A DNA stretch of 64,000 nucleotides. Source: Rhynchobatus australiae (Eukaryota). Position 1 is the first letter of the stretch. Each line of letters starts with the position of its first letter. The stretch covers positions 33,580,790-33,644,789 of the forward strand of contig JAUZTB010000107.1 in NCBI GenBank assembly GCA_034780895.1, given 5' to 3'. The notes below the pieces were generated by a model that made no database searches, was not told where the DNA came from, and saw only the letters and a list, made by a program, of their open reading frames with translations. Both the position numbers and the translations under genes were made by a program. Shown piece after piece: positions 5,450-43,294 of the stretch.

Positions 5450-6050
5450 CATGTTCAACAGCACTTCTTCCTATCATGTGGGCAGATGATTTATGGTTTA
5501 CCCGTTCAGCAAGGTTATGCAACGCTGCATGCCTTCAGAAGTATTATTTGAGTCAGTTGAGATTTAATTAAGATCACAACCCTTAAAATCCCTGCCCCAT
5601 GAAAATTCACAGAAGACAATGCACAATACATCCTGGTGCAACACTACAGAACAGATTGTTTTCATTCCAATCTTTGTAACAACACAAGCTAATCCTAGTT
5701 TCCATGACGACAGACAAAAGTTGACAAATTTTGTTTTGTTTAACATTCTGTTGCTGTTGCTTACAGTCCATCAATTAAAATATGCACGCAAAACGACAGC
5801 CAAAGAAAATATCAGCCTCGGTCCTACTGTGCAGATGCACCACTCAGTAGTGTAATATATGGTTGCCTATGTCGTGGTAAAGAAATGACAGGTGCTAGCA
5901 GTCTCTTTGGTTGACAGGCCACTGCACAAATAACTGCCTTCCCTGAAAGGGCTAATGCACTACTAATGAACAATAAATCAACTTTGATTATAAACTGTCA
6001 GACAAATCAGTTCTCAGTTCAGCACTCTGAGATTCTATGCCAAGTCAGCT
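5450..6050. promoter_or_regulatory. Enhancer-like block with PBX-HOX and MEIS motifs
   Basis: TGATTTATGG at 5487-5496, CAATAAATCA (rc TGATTTATTG) at 5971-5980, TGACAG at 5886-5891 and 5912-5917, CTGTCA at 5995-6000. No repeat signature. Confidence 0.4.
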
Positions 6051-7059
6051 GCACATTGCTGGAATACATCATCCACATTTAGTTTTGTTCACACAACACC
6101 ATACTGAAATTTCAAAATGAAAGTTGAAACTGAAAATCAAAACAGGTCCCTTTATCCCACTGGCCAGCGGAATTCATCCATGGCAAAACAGCTGCGAATT
6201 TGGGGCTCAGGTAAATCCTTTAACCACAATCCTCCAATCATCAAAACAATGTATTTATTGTCTTAGCGGTGCTTTAAACTCTTCATATCAATAACAATTC
6301 ATTCTAGATAAGGTTAGTGCATACTGTAACCTGTAACTTGCACTGCAGTGGGTTTCAGACTTTTAAAAAAAATGATAGAAATTTGAAAGGGAAAGTTACT
6401 TCAAAAGACAAAAGAAAAACTTTGATCTAACAAAGCACACTGTACACATCAACGAAAAACAAACGTTTAGAAATATCTCCTGTAGATGGTGACAGCCATG
6501 ATAGGATCATCTATTTTCTTACAGTATGTACTGTAGAGACACTAGGGAACATTTGACTCATTTGTCAACTAGTCAATAGGTTTTCAAGTGATTTTTAAAC
6601 TATTGCGGACTCCTCAAGTTAAAACAATCTAAAATGTGGCATCTCCTTTTCATACAAATAGCGAAGAAGATTTCCTTTGCATTTAAAATGCAGCAACACC
6701 AAAACCATGTACAGTTTTCAAAATTACCACCCTCCCATTACTTCATTTCCTGAGGGCTTCCTTAACTATGACAACATCCCATTTGAATCTAAACACAGCA
6801 AGGTTGACGTTCAAGTTACTTGCATCTCACACGCCACTGGACTCTGCAGGAATGAGACTATTCAGTGACCAAGAAAAACTACTCGACGCTGCATATTCTA
6901 CACAAGAGAATGGATGACATATAAACTCTGCATTCAAATTAACTTGTTCATTTTCCCTGTTGCTTCATAATGCATGACCATATAAAAATATTGAAATATT
7001 TACAAAGGTTGTAGCCAGTATCAAAAATATTCTAGGATGTTCCTATTTTACAACTCTAA

Positions 7060-7480
7060 TATGTTATAAATTGCCATTAAATGCAGCATAAATTAATTCT
7101 TGCAAAATCTGTTCCTGCTGGTGAAAGACACAGTAAATGACAATGGGTTCAATGATGAAAGGAGCTTTTAAAGCAAGCTGATAAATAAAGTAGCAACAAT
7201 GATAAAATATTGCAGAAAGTAAGTTGTGCTGCTTTTCTCCCAGATAAATTAAATTGTCAGTTTTACAGAGGAAAGGTACTAAAATTGTGGAATCAATCAT
7301 ATTGACAAACCTGACAAACTCCATTTAACTGCCGCAGTAAACAGAGTGGTGGGCCATGAAACACTAATAAGCCTCCTGTACAAACTCAGCTTTCTGCAGA
7401 TACAGACAGATTACACCCGCAAGGGTGAGCACCGACTGACATGATAATAAAGTCAATCAGCCACACCCTGCCCACCAAGC
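7060..7480. promoter_or_regulatory. CNE-like block adjacent to the candidate alternative exon
   Basis: Dense TAAT/ATTA, GATAA, TGACA and GTAAACA motifs in repeat-free sequence. Conservation not tested. Confidence 0.35.
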
Positions 7481-7492
7481 CCAACTACTCAC

Positions 7493-7585
7493 CATCATCA
7501 ATCCATGAGATTCAGATGCCTCTTGCGGTGGCCCTCTTCTTTTGTGATGACAAATGAAATTAAGTCCTTGTCTAAGAGACTTCAT
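7493..7585 (-). CDS. Candidate alternative first coding exon of FOXP1 (MKSLRQGLNFICHHKRRGPPQEASESHGLMM)
   Basis: actATG (A at -3) opens 31 uninterrupted codons ending in phase 0 at ATG|GTGAGT, matching the phase of this intron. The flanks are repeat-free. A possible acceptor ttcttttag lies at 7599-7607 and an ETS/FOX motif at 7786-7797. Confidence 0.5.
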
Positions 7586-8367
7586 AGTCAATTGTTTGCT
7601 AAAAGAATTCTAGTTTATTTTTCACAAAGAAAAATGTGTTAATTCCTGCTTTGTAGTTTTGTCTATTGACAATCAGCTCTAGCTCATGCAAAGTTAATCT
7701 ATCAGCAGCAATGTACTGAGATCTGAACTATAAACATTTTTATTAAAAATAATTAATGCTGCAGATCTAATGTCATATTGTTCCCACTTCCTGTTTTCTA
7801 AACAAATTTGAGAATGAGCATTCGTTGAAAACAATTTGTTTTTTCCTATGCCAATTTCATCGTTTTGTATGCCCAACCTGCACCTAAAAATTAATATTCT
7901 AAGGAGGTCCACATGTGTATGCTTAAGTGGAATTTTAGAAGTGTACTCTGAATATTTCAACTGGTTCATATATAGCAATGGCTTTGAAGAAACATTTTTT
8001 TAATGCTACCTCTGTCCTATTTATCTGCTTTGCAAAGGATTGCTTAAATTATCATTTAAGACATTTACATAAGCAAAACATAAAGTATTGTTATCATTTT
8101 TTTTTGCTAACTTGGAGAGCTGACTTCTCTTTTCCTCCCACAGATCTCTCTGGGAACAAAATGTTGTCCCAGTGTTTGAACTTACTTTGGAATCTTGGTA
8201 AGTGCATAACTGATTTGGACACAGGAATCAAACAATAATTCCATCCCCTCAGGTTTTAAATAAGTTTGATTCAACAAATGCATTGCAAAACATGTTACTA
8301 GAATACATGTTTGTGTTCTTGATTCCTGTCTGAGCCAGGATTAAAGATTATGTCCTGATGGGCAGCT

Positions 8368-8386
8368 TGTAGCCACCTGCTGGCAA
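8368..8386 (-). promoter_or_regulatory. CTCF-like site
   Basis: Reverse complement TTGCCAGCAGGTGGCTACA matches the CTCF core CCASYAGRKGGC. Confidence 0.5.
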
Positions 8387-8649
8387 TAATGTCACTATCG
8401 GAGACCTAGAGGTCTCTCTTCATCCTCATCAGCATGAGTTGGTGTACAATACTGCGACTCCACAGGCATACTTACAGAAATAACGGCAGCCACAAATGGA
8501 CAATTTTTCCACTGCTGGCTCCTATACAAAATGAGTCTTTTATTTCAGAGAGCTAACAAAAGTTTAGACCTCTGAATATGAGAACGTGCTGACAGTACAG
8601 CATGGGAAGTCAGTCTACACGAATGCACTCTCTTCAATATAGTTGAGAA

Positions 8650-8940
8650 GCGAGTTCATTAGAACAGAGATGAGATGATTTTCTGTTTCGCTCAAATGGT
8701 CGTGAATCACTGGAACTCTCTTCCTCATAGGTCCACGGAAGCAGTCTTTGAATTATTTTTAAGGCAGAGGTAGACAAATAGTTGATAAGCAAGAAGTGAT
8801 AAAAAAAAGTGATAGATTACCACGAGTAGATGGAAATGCTGAGATGAAGTTATAAGCAGATCAGCCAAGATCTTATTAAATGGATAAGCATGCTTGAGGG
8901 GTTGAGTGGCCTACTCCTGCTCCTAATTAGCATATTTGTA
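8650..8940 (+). mobile_element. CR1 LINE 3' end fragment
   Basis: GTCGTGAATCACTGGAACTCTCTTCC (VVNxWNSLP), TTTAAGGCAGAGGTAGAC, and 3'UTR GATCAGCCA...GAGGGGTTGAGTGGCCTACTCCTGCTCCT. Confidence 0.8.
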
Positions 8941-11469
8941 TGTAGGTTTGTATGTTGACAAACTAGTTATTGGCCCAACCACTAGATCTGATTTTACCTT
9001 GAGGAAGACACCTAGAAATAACTACCTCAAGGAAATTAGCACAGTCTTAATGAGCAAGATCCTACAACCTTCCAAAGGTAAATCCCACAAAAATGCTTTG
9101 AATGTCTGTGACGGGATGCTCTTAGGCTGAAATGGTGAGAATGTTTCTGAACTTCACAACATTCAAAAACCATTTTAAAAATTACATACACTGTTAAAAT
9201 CTTTTTACAGTTTTAAAAGTCTAAATAATACTAGAAAATAATTAAAAATCAATTGTAAGGATGCAGTTTATCTGAAAAATTACATCTCTCCCTCTGACTG
9301 AATGGAGTTGATGAACCTCTGCTGACTTCAACAGGTGGTTTTCCCTAGCCTAACAGCTGGGAAATTGCCAAAATTCATGCCGGACTCCATGAGCAGTCTA
9401 GGATCGGAGTAAAGCAAACTTCACAGTGGCGAGCAGCTGCATAGAAATTTAGGGCATCAGTACTCGTGTATATCTGTCCAAAGCCCCAAACCTTTTCAGA
9501 AATAGGGCCAGGACTTTCATACTGGATGAAAGATTTTTTTGTGGAAATTCTGGGCCAAATCTGTAATTCTGAAAAGAATTTAACTGTTCAAAAAATATAC
9601 TTTTGTATACTTGAATGTGTTTTCAGGGGTAAAAAGAAACATACTGTATGCACACAGGTAATATAAATTTCTCTTCCATTGTATTTTGAAGAACCCTGAC
9701 TTTACTGGCCTCTTATGTTCAACGCTACAATGACTGTAGTCNNNNNNNNTCATTTGTACTATTTGATGTGTGATATGACTTTTAGGTTTTTTTGTGTAAG
9801 TTGTTGGTTGGTTTTATAATTTGTTGATGCTGCACATAATGTTTCTTCAGGTGTATGTACTAGTAAAATGGCTGGCTTTATCCTACCCTGATTGTATGCC
9901 AAAAGGAAAATTGATACCATTCATAAAGCAAGATTTTGCATCATCATCCATAAGCCCCTCAACTAAGCTTTCACAATCCCAGTTAGACCATTATAAACTC
10001 TGTTGAATAATAAAATAAAACTTTCTTTTGTCAAAAAGGAAGAAAATATCTAGAAATTATAGCTGAGTGTCACAGTGGGGTGTCAAAATAATTCATTGAT
10101 CACCATCACAAACTCCAGTGGGTGTGATAAGCATTTGGTTTTGAAATTCTGCTGCCCTGTGGACTCCATTCAGAGGGCAGCTTCAGGTTGGTTGGCTGCC
10201 ATAGATCCAATTGCTGAGCTTGGATGGTGTCAGGGCCAGGGTAGGGCAATTCTGGGATAAGACAATGGGAAATCTTGACAGTTGTGGCCTGAACCTTTGG
10301 GGATCTTGGGTCCCTGATGGAGAACTGTGAAGGGGATGGAATTGGATGCAGGTATGTAATGACTCACCTGACAGTCATCCCACTCCAGCAATGTGCTAGA
10401 TAGTCCAGATTTCAGAAGTGCTCAGCTTGATCTATGTTCCGCTGCAATACTTCAAAAAGAATGTTGCACGGGAAATAACATCATCCTTTGCACCCGACAT
10501 GAAAATGATCAGAGATGCAAGGGTGACTCATATCATAAACGATCTGATCAAAATTCCAAAGTGATACAAAATCACCTGTAAATCACTCATGAAAATAATT
10601 TTTCAACTGCATATTGCTGAGAAAAAATTCATTATGCAATTAGCTTTCTAGGCAACTGTTTTACCAATTTTAGTTACAAGACCTCATCTGTTTATACAAG
10701 GATGTTCTCTATTCCCTGGTGCTCAAGTAACCAAAAAGTTTCATCATTTTGCATCACTAATTAACTAACCAATTGTCTCGGATGTAAATTATGAGTATTA
10801 CAGGACAGTGAAACAGCACGCTTCGCTCAAGTTTCCTTTATTGGATTTTTATTTTGAGATTTGAATTAGGAGTGAAAGCATCCAAGATGAAGGATTTTGG
10901 AATCATTTTGCTTATGTCTAGACCATTAAGCAGTAACTCAAATATGTACTGTAAAACCNNNNNNNNNNNNNNNNNNNNNNNNNNNNNNNNNNNNNNNNNN
11001 NNNNNNNNNNNNNNNNNNNNNNNNNNNNNNNNNNNNNNNNNNNNNNNNNNNNNNNNNNNNNNNNNNNNNNNNNNNNNNNNNNNNNNNNNNNNNNNNNNNN
11101 NNNNNNNNNNNNNNNNNNNNNNNNNNNNNNNNNNNNNNNNNNNNNNNNNNNNNNNNNNNNNNNNNNNNNNNNNNNNNNNNNNNNNNNNNNNNNNNNNNNN
11201 NNNNNNNNNNNNNNNNNNNNNNNNNNNNNNNNNNNNNNNNNNNNNNNNNNNNNNNNNNNNNNNNNNNNNNNNNNNNNNNNNNCCTGTGCAAAAAGGCACC
11301 TGATATGACTGGAAGGTAGAACGCCTAACACTTGTTCCAACAGAGATCAAATCCTTGGCCTCAAAGGCATTATTACTAATTTTAAAAGCAACACAACCAA
11401 TGGTAGAATGGTCATTGTGGGCTACACATTTAGGGCAGGACACCTCCAATGAATTAAAATCAGTCCTGA

Positions 11470-16167: not shown

Positions 16168-16957
16168 GTTGTCTACATGGACTTTAGTAAGGCCTTTGAC
16201 AAGGTCCAATATGGGAGGTTAGTTCAGAAGGTTCAGACACTAGGTATCCATGGAGAGTTTGTAAACTGGATCTGAAACTGGCTGTGTGGGAGGAGACAGA
16301 GAGTGGTAGTGGATGATTGTTTCTTAGACTAGAGGCCTGTGACTAGTGGTGTGCCTCAGGGATCTGTGCTGGGACCATTGTTGTTTGTTGTCTATATCAA
16401 TGATCTAGNNNNNNNNNNNNNNNNNNNNNNNNNNNNNNNNNNNNNNNNNNNNNNNNNNNNNNNNNNNNNNNNNNNNNNNNNNNNNNNNNNNNNNNNNNNN
16501 NNNNNNNNTACTAGAATGTTGCCAGGTCTTCAGGAGTTGAGTTACAGGGAAAGACTGAACAGGTTAGGACTTTATTCCTTGGAGCGTAGAAGAATGAGGG
16601 GGGATTTGATAGAGGTTTACAAAATTATGAAGGGTATAGACAGAGTAAATGTGAGTAGGCTCTTTCCATCTAGATTAGGAGAGATAAGTATGAGAGGACA
16701 TGGCCTTAGGGTAAAAGAGGAAAGGTTTAGGGGAGACTTCTTCATTCAGAGCGTGGGGGGAGTGTGGAACAGGCTGCCATCTGACATGGTAAATGCTGGC
16801 TCACTCTTAAATTATAAGAATAAATTGGATAGATACATGGACAGGAGAGGGCTGGAGGGTTATAGACTGGGTGCAGGTCAATGGGACTGGCAGAATAAAG
16901 TTTTGGCACAGACTAGGAGGGCCGAATGGCCTGTTTTCTGTGCTGTAGTGTTCTATG
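16168..16957 (+). mobile_element. CR1 LINE ORF2 reverse transcriptase and 3' end (5'-truncated, gap inside)
   Basis: VVYMDFSKAFDKV...TSGVPQGSVLGPLLFVVYINDL...LSYRERLNRLGLYSLERRRMRGDLIEVYKIMKG...WNRLP, with tail TTCTATG. Internal stops are present. Confidence 0.95.
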
Positions 16958-17144
16958 GACTGTGCACTACCTACAAAGCCAGCAATGGGTGCATAATTCT
17001 TGCACATCTTGATCCCTACACCCTCCTTTGCTGGGAGAAGGGTTTTTAATTTAGTCTCCACAATCCACAAAATTAATTTCTGCATGTAAAAAAAAATCCA
17101 CTAGTTATGTCCATTCACATTAAAACTACTAAAATTAACAGATT

Positions 17145-40569: not shown

Positions 40570-40900
40570 GCTGTAGTTCCTAATTACCTTCTTCTTCACT
40601 CTTGATCCTGTGGCTCTCATAATTAGTTACCTGGGGCTGCAATCCAATTTGAAGTGATGACAAGAAAGTGATCCATGAAAAGTAATAAGTTAAATCCAAT
40701 TTCAGTCTGCCTCTAATTAAATGCACATGGAACTAATGACTCAACCCTACCATTTCAGTGATAATGTTAATTAGCTAGGTGGGAGTCTCTTTTGCAGTAT
40801 TCTATGTGTAAACCAAGTAATAGGGGGAAGGGATGTCCATAATTACACGTGACATTTTTTGGAAAATTGTCAGCAATTTGCACGTTTATGATTAGTCAAA
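40570..40900. promoter_or_regulatory. Homeobox-site cluster, CNE-like
   Basis: Five TAATTA palindromes (40581, 40620, 40714, 40768, 40840) and an AP-1 site TGACTCA (40737-40743) in about 270 bp. Confidence 0.45.
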
Positions 40901-42348: not shown

Positions 42349-43294
42349 ATAGTGTTTCTTTTAGGACTGGAGTTCAGAGAGGCACACCGTACTAAGTTGA
42401 TAATAAATTTTCAACAAAAATCTCATAACTATCATATTTTTGTTTCTTATACTTTTAGTTTGAAATTGTCCTTACTCATATAAATCTTCCCCTGCTATAA
42501 ACATTTTGCAATCCTAGTTCAATGCAATTATATTTAAAACTGTTTAAGGAAATGCAGAAGCTTACTTCTCTCATGTACAGTTTTATTGTGTCATTAAAAA
42601 AGGCAACAATGCACATTACTGAATTACATTTAATATAACATCAATGAGAACAACAGAACACAGACCGGAGATATCAATCATTAAATAGAGGGTGTATACA
42701 TTTAAATATAAATGTTAAATATCCAAGTTAGCATCACAATGATGGAAAGGTGCACTTAATTCAAATGACTTCATAAAATATTAATAATGACATTCNNNNN
42801 NNNNNNNNNNNNNNNNNNNNNNNNNNNNNNNNNNNNNNNNNNNNNNNNNNNNNNNNNNNNNNNNNNNNNNNNNNNNNNNNNNNNNNNNNNNNNNNTGACA
42901 TTCAGTTTGATCATCAAGCTTTCATAAGAATCAACAGTTAACTTAAAAAAAATCTTCCACTTGGTGGCTACTGTTGATCTCTGTAACAAAAGTTCCTAGC
43001 TTGGGTATAAAAAGTGATTAGTTTTGGTCCTTTCAAATTATTTGCATCCTCACCAACATACTGAAGGAAGTTATTTTTAATTTTCCTTGGGAATTTTCAA
43101 AAACATTAGCACAACAAAGCAATTCTTTGGTGTCTAATGTCCAACCTATTAAACGATAGCTCATTAAGTGATGACTATATTGTCATTCCATTAAATATGG
43201 CACATGACAGTTAGGCCAAGCTGTACATGGGTTCCATCCAAAAAAGAACTAAGTACACACATTATGCATCATCTATATAAAATAATACACTTAC

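Follow-up and report, generated by a model that had tools for sequence, protein, structure and literature searches.

In the FOXP1 gene of Rhynchobatus australiae, a 31-codon open frame on the reverse strand runs into a strong candidate splice donor, and we tentatively favor the view that this donor belongs to an alternative first exon feeding an N-truncated FOXP1, the frame itself being incidental. Transcription would begin at a predicted internal promoter within the long FOXP1 intron, the donor at position 7492 would end the first exon, and this exon would be spliced in frame to the exon encoding VPVSVAMM. The predicted product is an N-truncated FOXP1 that would lack the first 87 residues and keep the zinc finger, the leucine zipper and the forkhead domain. 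Most of the exon might be 5' leader, its 31 codons an incidental frame limited to the lineage, which would be translated only if transcription started upstream of 7585; otherwise, the ribosome might start at one of the terminal ATGs, or on the Met-Met pair of the following exon as it does in mammals. A pseudo-exon, produced by chance in a long AT-rich intron, is nearly as likely.

Results

The gene and its intron

The window, that is, the whole 64-kb stretch of DNA that was analyzed, holds one FoxP coding exon, at 43384-43295 on the reverse strand. This exon of 90 nt (phase 0 at both ends) is FOXP1's second coding exon, equivalent to human exon 7, and forms the upstream boundary of the intron studied here. 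A search with it returned 109 proteins with cartilaginous-fish FOXP1 models at the top, and its 30 residues recur unchanged in the Pristis pectinata and Callorhinchus milii models. Because of this residue-for-residue agreement, the gene is identified by its sequence as FOXP1, in accordance with the initial annotation. Neither the first coding exon nor the VPVSVAMM exon was found within the 64 kb; since the latter lies outside, the intron is longer than 43 kb, with its 3' end beyond the window. In primate FOXP1 models, VPVSVAMM has its first Met at residue 101, which is the exon-8 start of the human short isoform (PMC5394978), so that the intron is the counterpart of human intron 7. The candidate exon lies inside FOXP1, downstream of the first coding exon, between exon 43384-43295 and the end of the window. 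The GC content of the window is 27-43% per 2-kb bin. There are 22 N gaps, and the many gaps of 100 nt suggest a scaffolded short-read assembly. On the forward strand, a frame at 16333-17049 resembles the decayed end of a CR1-type LINE reverse transcriptase.

Anatomy of the candidate exon

The start codon at 7585-7583, with an A at -3 (7588) and another at +4, opens a frame of 31 codons, MKSLRQGLNFICHHKRRGPPQEASESHGLMM (7585-7493, reverse strand), whose last two codons are ATG ATG and which reaches the candidate 5' splice site ATG/GTGAGT (GTGAGT at 7492-7487) in phase 0. The initial annotation had described this ATG, its A at -3, the frame and the phase-0 donor correctly to the base, and was equally right that the phase suits the VPVSVAMM exon. 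When splice sites were scored with a simple frequency model based on textbook frequencies, the donor ranked 5th among 2344 GT sites (4th without the real exon's donor at 43294, itself 2nd), three other intronic GTs scoring higher; the donor is strong. Directly 3' of the donor, three G-runs (7486-7462, reverse strand) form a candidate intronic splicing enhancer, intronic G-runs being known to act in this way. The 15 other intronic GTRAGT sites are followed by 0-2 such runs, and at least three runs occur in 0.5% of 44-nt intron windows, although the feature was selected after looking. The same limit applies to the local GC content of 48% (95th percentile) and to an ETS-type motif, ACAGGAAGT (7794-7786, reverse strand), which is found some 200 nt upstream of the start codon and is one of two in the 43.3-kb intron. 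It is a possible internal-promoter element. Singly, the motif, the GC content and the G-runs carry little weight; jointly, they fit a first exon more than a cassette. The candidate is unlikely to be a repeat, since a single record covers it in each sequencing run and no second copy was found within the window.

The acceptor side is much weaker. The TTTTAG that ends at 7599, within TTCTTTTAG (7607-7599, reverse strand), would create a cassette of 106 nt (7598-7493) and, when this is joined in phase 0, an in-frame TAG appears at codon 9, exactly as had been annotated. This acceptor ranks 894th among 2663 intronic AGs, where the real exon's acceptor would be 6th; pyrimidines make up 53% of its tract, compared with 76% at the real exon, and a competing AG lies 11 nt upstream. 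The frame is in fact open from 7609, which the initial annotation had missed, and a TAG at 7612-7610 bounds it, giving a stop-free cassette of 117 nt and 39 codons (7609-7493). The AG of this second site (7611-7610) follows a very poor pyrimidine tract and ranks 2555th of 2663. A donor ranked 5/2344 paired with an acceptor ranked 894/2663 suggests the anatomy of a first exon.

Chance expectation

Among the 16 GTRAGT sites of the intron, the donor at 7492 is the only one with a phase-0 ATG frame of at least 30 codons and also the only one directly preceded by ATG; under a looser pattern, three ATG/GT donor-like sites occur in the visible intron, the candidate included. When the 43.3-kb intron was shuffled 200 times with its dinucleotides preserved, the mean number of sites combining ATG, frame and donor was 0.43, with at least one in 35% of the shuffles, and an ATG/GTRAGT donor arose in 38%. 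Moreover, the antisense strand of the intron holds one equivalent site. The combination of ATG, frame and donor is not above chance. The best-scoring donor-like site of the intron is CAG/GTGAGT at 10367 on the reverse strand, which scores above the real exon's donor; it has no phase-0 ATG frame and may be the end of another candidate non-coding exon.

Protein comparisons

In two library searches, which covered cluster representatives only, no homologue of the peptide came up: phmmer with the 31 residues against 1.84 billion representatives found no homologue, its sole hit (P0003, a tandem-repeat product of 1132 residues) being rejected as a repeat artefact with a score summed across repeats, and a weak search of proteins 89-2000 residues long with the 50-residue stop-to-stop frame yielded no candidate. 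Pfam assigned 0 families to the two peptides. The peptide was found in 0 of 359 FoxP proteins carrying the exon-8 motif (best phmmer E 3.5) and in 0 of 80 cartilaginous-fish FOXP1 models; the FoxP sample included the best 120 of 933 hits in one search and 15 of the 44 members of the largest shark/ray cluster. A bat FOXP1 model that also starts with MKS (P0358) showed no alignment to the peptide, and inserts in FOXP2 and gar proteins do not map onto the candidate exon.

Full-length proteins with no insert at the junction make up 55 of the 80 cartilaginous-fish models, and 11 begin at the Met-Met of the next exon. The others start as M/AFQ (5), as M/VPVSVAMM (2) or with other short N-termini (6), and one skips the second coding exon. 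M/VPVSVAMM models were found in the chimaera Callorhinchus milii (XP_007893422.1, P0155), in the sawshark Pristiophorus japonicus (isoform X3, UniRef100_UPI00398E7331, P0214) and in the bullfrog Aquarana catesbeiana (XP_073448172.1, P0306). Such models imply an upstream exon that ends in ATG and joins the VPVSVAMM exon in phase 0. The candidate has the only strong ATG/GT donor in the visible intron, and we infer that it may be the exon behind these three models. Of the support from outside the window for the exon being real, these models are the strongest. They count at the same time against the 31-residue tip, because a single Met precedes VPV. Thus, of the proposal that the exon gives FOXP1 a new N-terminus, the ATG-ending exon spliced to VPVSVAMM found an echo in three jawed-vertebrate models, and the peptide itself, absent from all 359 FoxP proteins, did not. 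A start as MM/VPV was not seen among the FoxP models compared, though the candidate has two terminal ATGs.

The M/AFQ starts of five shark models imply another ATG-ending exon, upstream of the second coding exon. With the second coding exon left out, as it is in P0216 and P0232, the M/VPV models may use that upstream exon instead. Unrelated short N-termini are also joined to the VPVSVAMM exon in newts, two bats and the chimaera, and this is the variety that leader exons would produce if their ATGs were incidental. In several shark models (P0009-P0013, P0133, P0134, P0141, P0146, P0322), the second coding exon is preceded by a short alternative N-terminus, with a lone Met in five species and an 11-residue start common to Cetorhinus, Carcharodon and Scyliorhinus; the exons encoding them were not found within the window. 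Amphibian FOXP1 models (P0205, P0212, P0234 and related frog models) treat the same junction differently: two newts have a 17-residue start in common, and two ranid frogs carry an in-frame insert of 20 residues.

Other elements in and near the intron

The same intron contains an exon that is, by sequence comparison, better supported than the candidate. At 40620-40588 on the reverse strand, an ATG-initiated frame of 11 codons, MRATGSRVKKK, ends at AAG/GTAATT in phase 0, and 9 of its 11 residues are identical to the N-terminus of a Callorhinchus FOXP1 model (XP_007893421.1, P0158; E 2.7e-4 within the window). Protein comparison can therefore detect conserved alternative exons of this intron; it gave no such match for the 31-codon frame. 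A second strong donor-like site, CAG/GTAACT, lies at 40630, just upstream of the ATG at 40620. Outside the intron, a block at about 44890-44703 (reverse strand), 1.3 kb upstream of exon 43384-43295, resembles the mammalian alternative N-terminus that starts with MFQCVFSS (P0064), a start that would correspond to exon 6b, and also the Dromiciops model P0232. The matches (E 1e-6 to 1e-3 within the window) do not share a reading frame; the DNA of the block is conserved from cartilaginous fish to mammals, but its frame is not.

The one match of an Rfam scan of 6000-9000, snoR64 on the opposite strand, reached 22 bits where the threshold is 45 (E 0.8); we attribute it to chance, as we do the 20 loci found in a metagenome scan with a 20-nt donor pattern, whose similarity was confined to the pattern. 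A literature search without most subscription papers retrieved no paper on the candidate exon or on shark FOXP1 isoforms; the string '3a and 3b' in PMC4452790 is a figure reference.

Variation in close relatives

Five sequencing runs of unrecorded kind, none of them listed as RNA, cover the stretch, and four of them were compared over 6600-8600, two relatives, organisms B and C, being about 1-3% diverged. Organism C, about 2.7% diverged, has 54-55 substitution places in 2001 nt, and none falls at 7480-7600 among the 40 of 66 substitution rows listed. About 2.9 substitutions would be expected in 106 nt, which gives their absence a P of about 0.04-0.06; other stretches of 96-136 nt in the neighborhood are likewise unchanged among the rows listed. 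The 12 of 24 indel rows listed place no indel inside the candidate exon, and the listed rows contain no difference at the donor in organisms B or C. Over the 93 nt of the frame, these rows hold no change, so that there is no pattern of silent and replacing changes to score. Just outside the frame, organism C has a T>C change at 7601, position -3 of the acceptor, which turns TAG into CAG and keeps the YAG consensus; in the 117-nt frame the same change is a silent third position. A further change in organism C, at 7614, creates a competing AG just upstream of the AG at 7610.

In run X3, two contigs end within the T4 run at 7540-7543, each retaining three Ts, a pattern that matches a possible heterozygous one-base deletion in the frame of organism C. 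In run X4 of the same sample, the T4 run is crossed unbroken, with no indel among the rows listed, so that the X3 break is a hint only. No joint at 7492 was seen in any of the four runs, although contigs of unrecorded kind cannot decide splicing.

Discussion

For the alternative first exon, which remains our tentative preference, count the G-runs behind the donor, the M/VPVSVAMM models, the common Met-Met starts (11/80) and the pattern of organism C. The 35% and 38% shuffle rates count against it, as do the weak conservation test, the possibility that another exon lies behind the M/VPV models and, according to PMC5394978, the scarcity of human exon 7c transcripts and their failure to track the short protein. 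The splice-like signals of a pseudo-exon would never be used, or only noisily. Such an origin would agree with the equivalent sites in the shuffles and on the antisense strand, with the three intronic GTs that outscore the donor and the weak acceptor, and with a peptide that has neither a homologue nor a Pfam family. The break of the X3 contigs would fit as well, if it reflects a heterozygous deletion, but X4 runs unbroken over the same Ts. The G-runs directly behind the donor, the lack of listed substitutions in the exon of organism C and the M/VPV models in three lineages argue the other way.

The readings in which the sequence also serves as a cassette are less probable. The initial annotation had put forward a dual-use exon, included as a stop-carrying 106-nt cassette in the long transcript and used as a coding first exon elsewhere, thereby switching between long and short FOXP1; inclusion would lead to decay of the transcript or to restart downstream. 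The cassette and its stop are indeed present in the sequence, the -3 change of organism C respects the acceptor consensus, and the paralogous intron of FOXP2 has its stop-carrying exon 3a. Nevertheless, the acceptor that the switch needs ranks far below that of the real exon, with a short pyrimidine tract and a competing AG nearby, and protein collections, which cannot reveal a poison cassette, lend the switch no positive support. Such a switch seems unlikely to us. More unlikely still is an ancient jawed-vertebrate internal exon, its ATG/GT donor kept from chimaera to frog, that has gained in this lineage a translated basic N-terminus of 31 residues and serves as a stop-carrying cassette of the long transcript as well, so that a single exon would turn off the long form and initiate a new short one. 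As for the 117-nt cassette, which would add 39 residues to full-length FOXP1, it is stop-free from 7609 with a length that is a multiple of 3, the only listed change of organism C inside it (7601) is silent, and in-frame inserts occur at the same junction in FOXP2 (P0224, P0226, P0227, P0230) and in a frog FOXP1 (P0234). However, its AG is among the poorest of the intron, the change at 7614 gives organism C a rival AG just upstream, none of the 55 full-length cartilaginous-fish models carries an insert, and the frame has no similarity to known inserts; we regard this reading as extremely improbable.

If the alternative first exon is real, it would suggest that making short FOXP1 from internal promoters, a route studied in B and T cells of mammals, goes back as far as the jawed vertebrates, and the exon would offer a place to test this route in cartilaginous fishes such as sharks and rays. 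What is gained is modest, since internal starts in the intron are already known and short isoforms are already annotated in many cartilaginous fishes (11 of 80 models). It would be a surprise only if the 31-residue tip were conserved and functional, or if the exon were a true dual-use switch, two possibilities that the evidence tends to speak against.

Internal promoters are known to give N-truncated FOXP1, on which the initial annotation relied. According to PMC5394978, the main human short isoform, delta-N100, starts at Met101 in exon 8 and lacks 100 residues, short and long human FOXP1 regulated genes similarly, and transcripts of exon 7c were detected in lymphoma lines, but at very low abundance and without following the level of the short protein. 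Transcripts of exon 6b are described as common in lymphomas in PMC3887110, and PMC9576946 reports that short FOXP1 isoforms rise upon lymphocyte activation. The human short forms (alternative 5' exons 6b and 7c) and mouse Foxp1S come from the same gene as the candidate and, according to PMC5394978, PMC7145990 and PMC3887110, have the product predicted for it: the N-terminus is lost and the folded domains are kept. Judging from its name and from the position of Met101 within VPVSVAMM, human exon 7c would lie in the same intron as the candidate. In mammals, the start of the short protein is within exon 8, whereas the candidate exon has in-frame ATGs of its own.

The M/VPVSVAMM models are like the candidate in pointing to an ATG-ending exon in phase 0 with the same acceptor exon, and unlike it in having one Met and no 31-residue extension; they may derive from another exon. 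The alternative exons of FOXP2 in the paralogous intron, which we take to be those named 3a and 3b, sit at the same junction as the candidate. Exon 3a carries a stop, and three FOXP2 models (P0224, P0226, P0227) contain a 25-residue in-frame insert. These FOXP2 exons are internal cassettes, whereas the candidate has a dissimilar frame and a weak acceptor.
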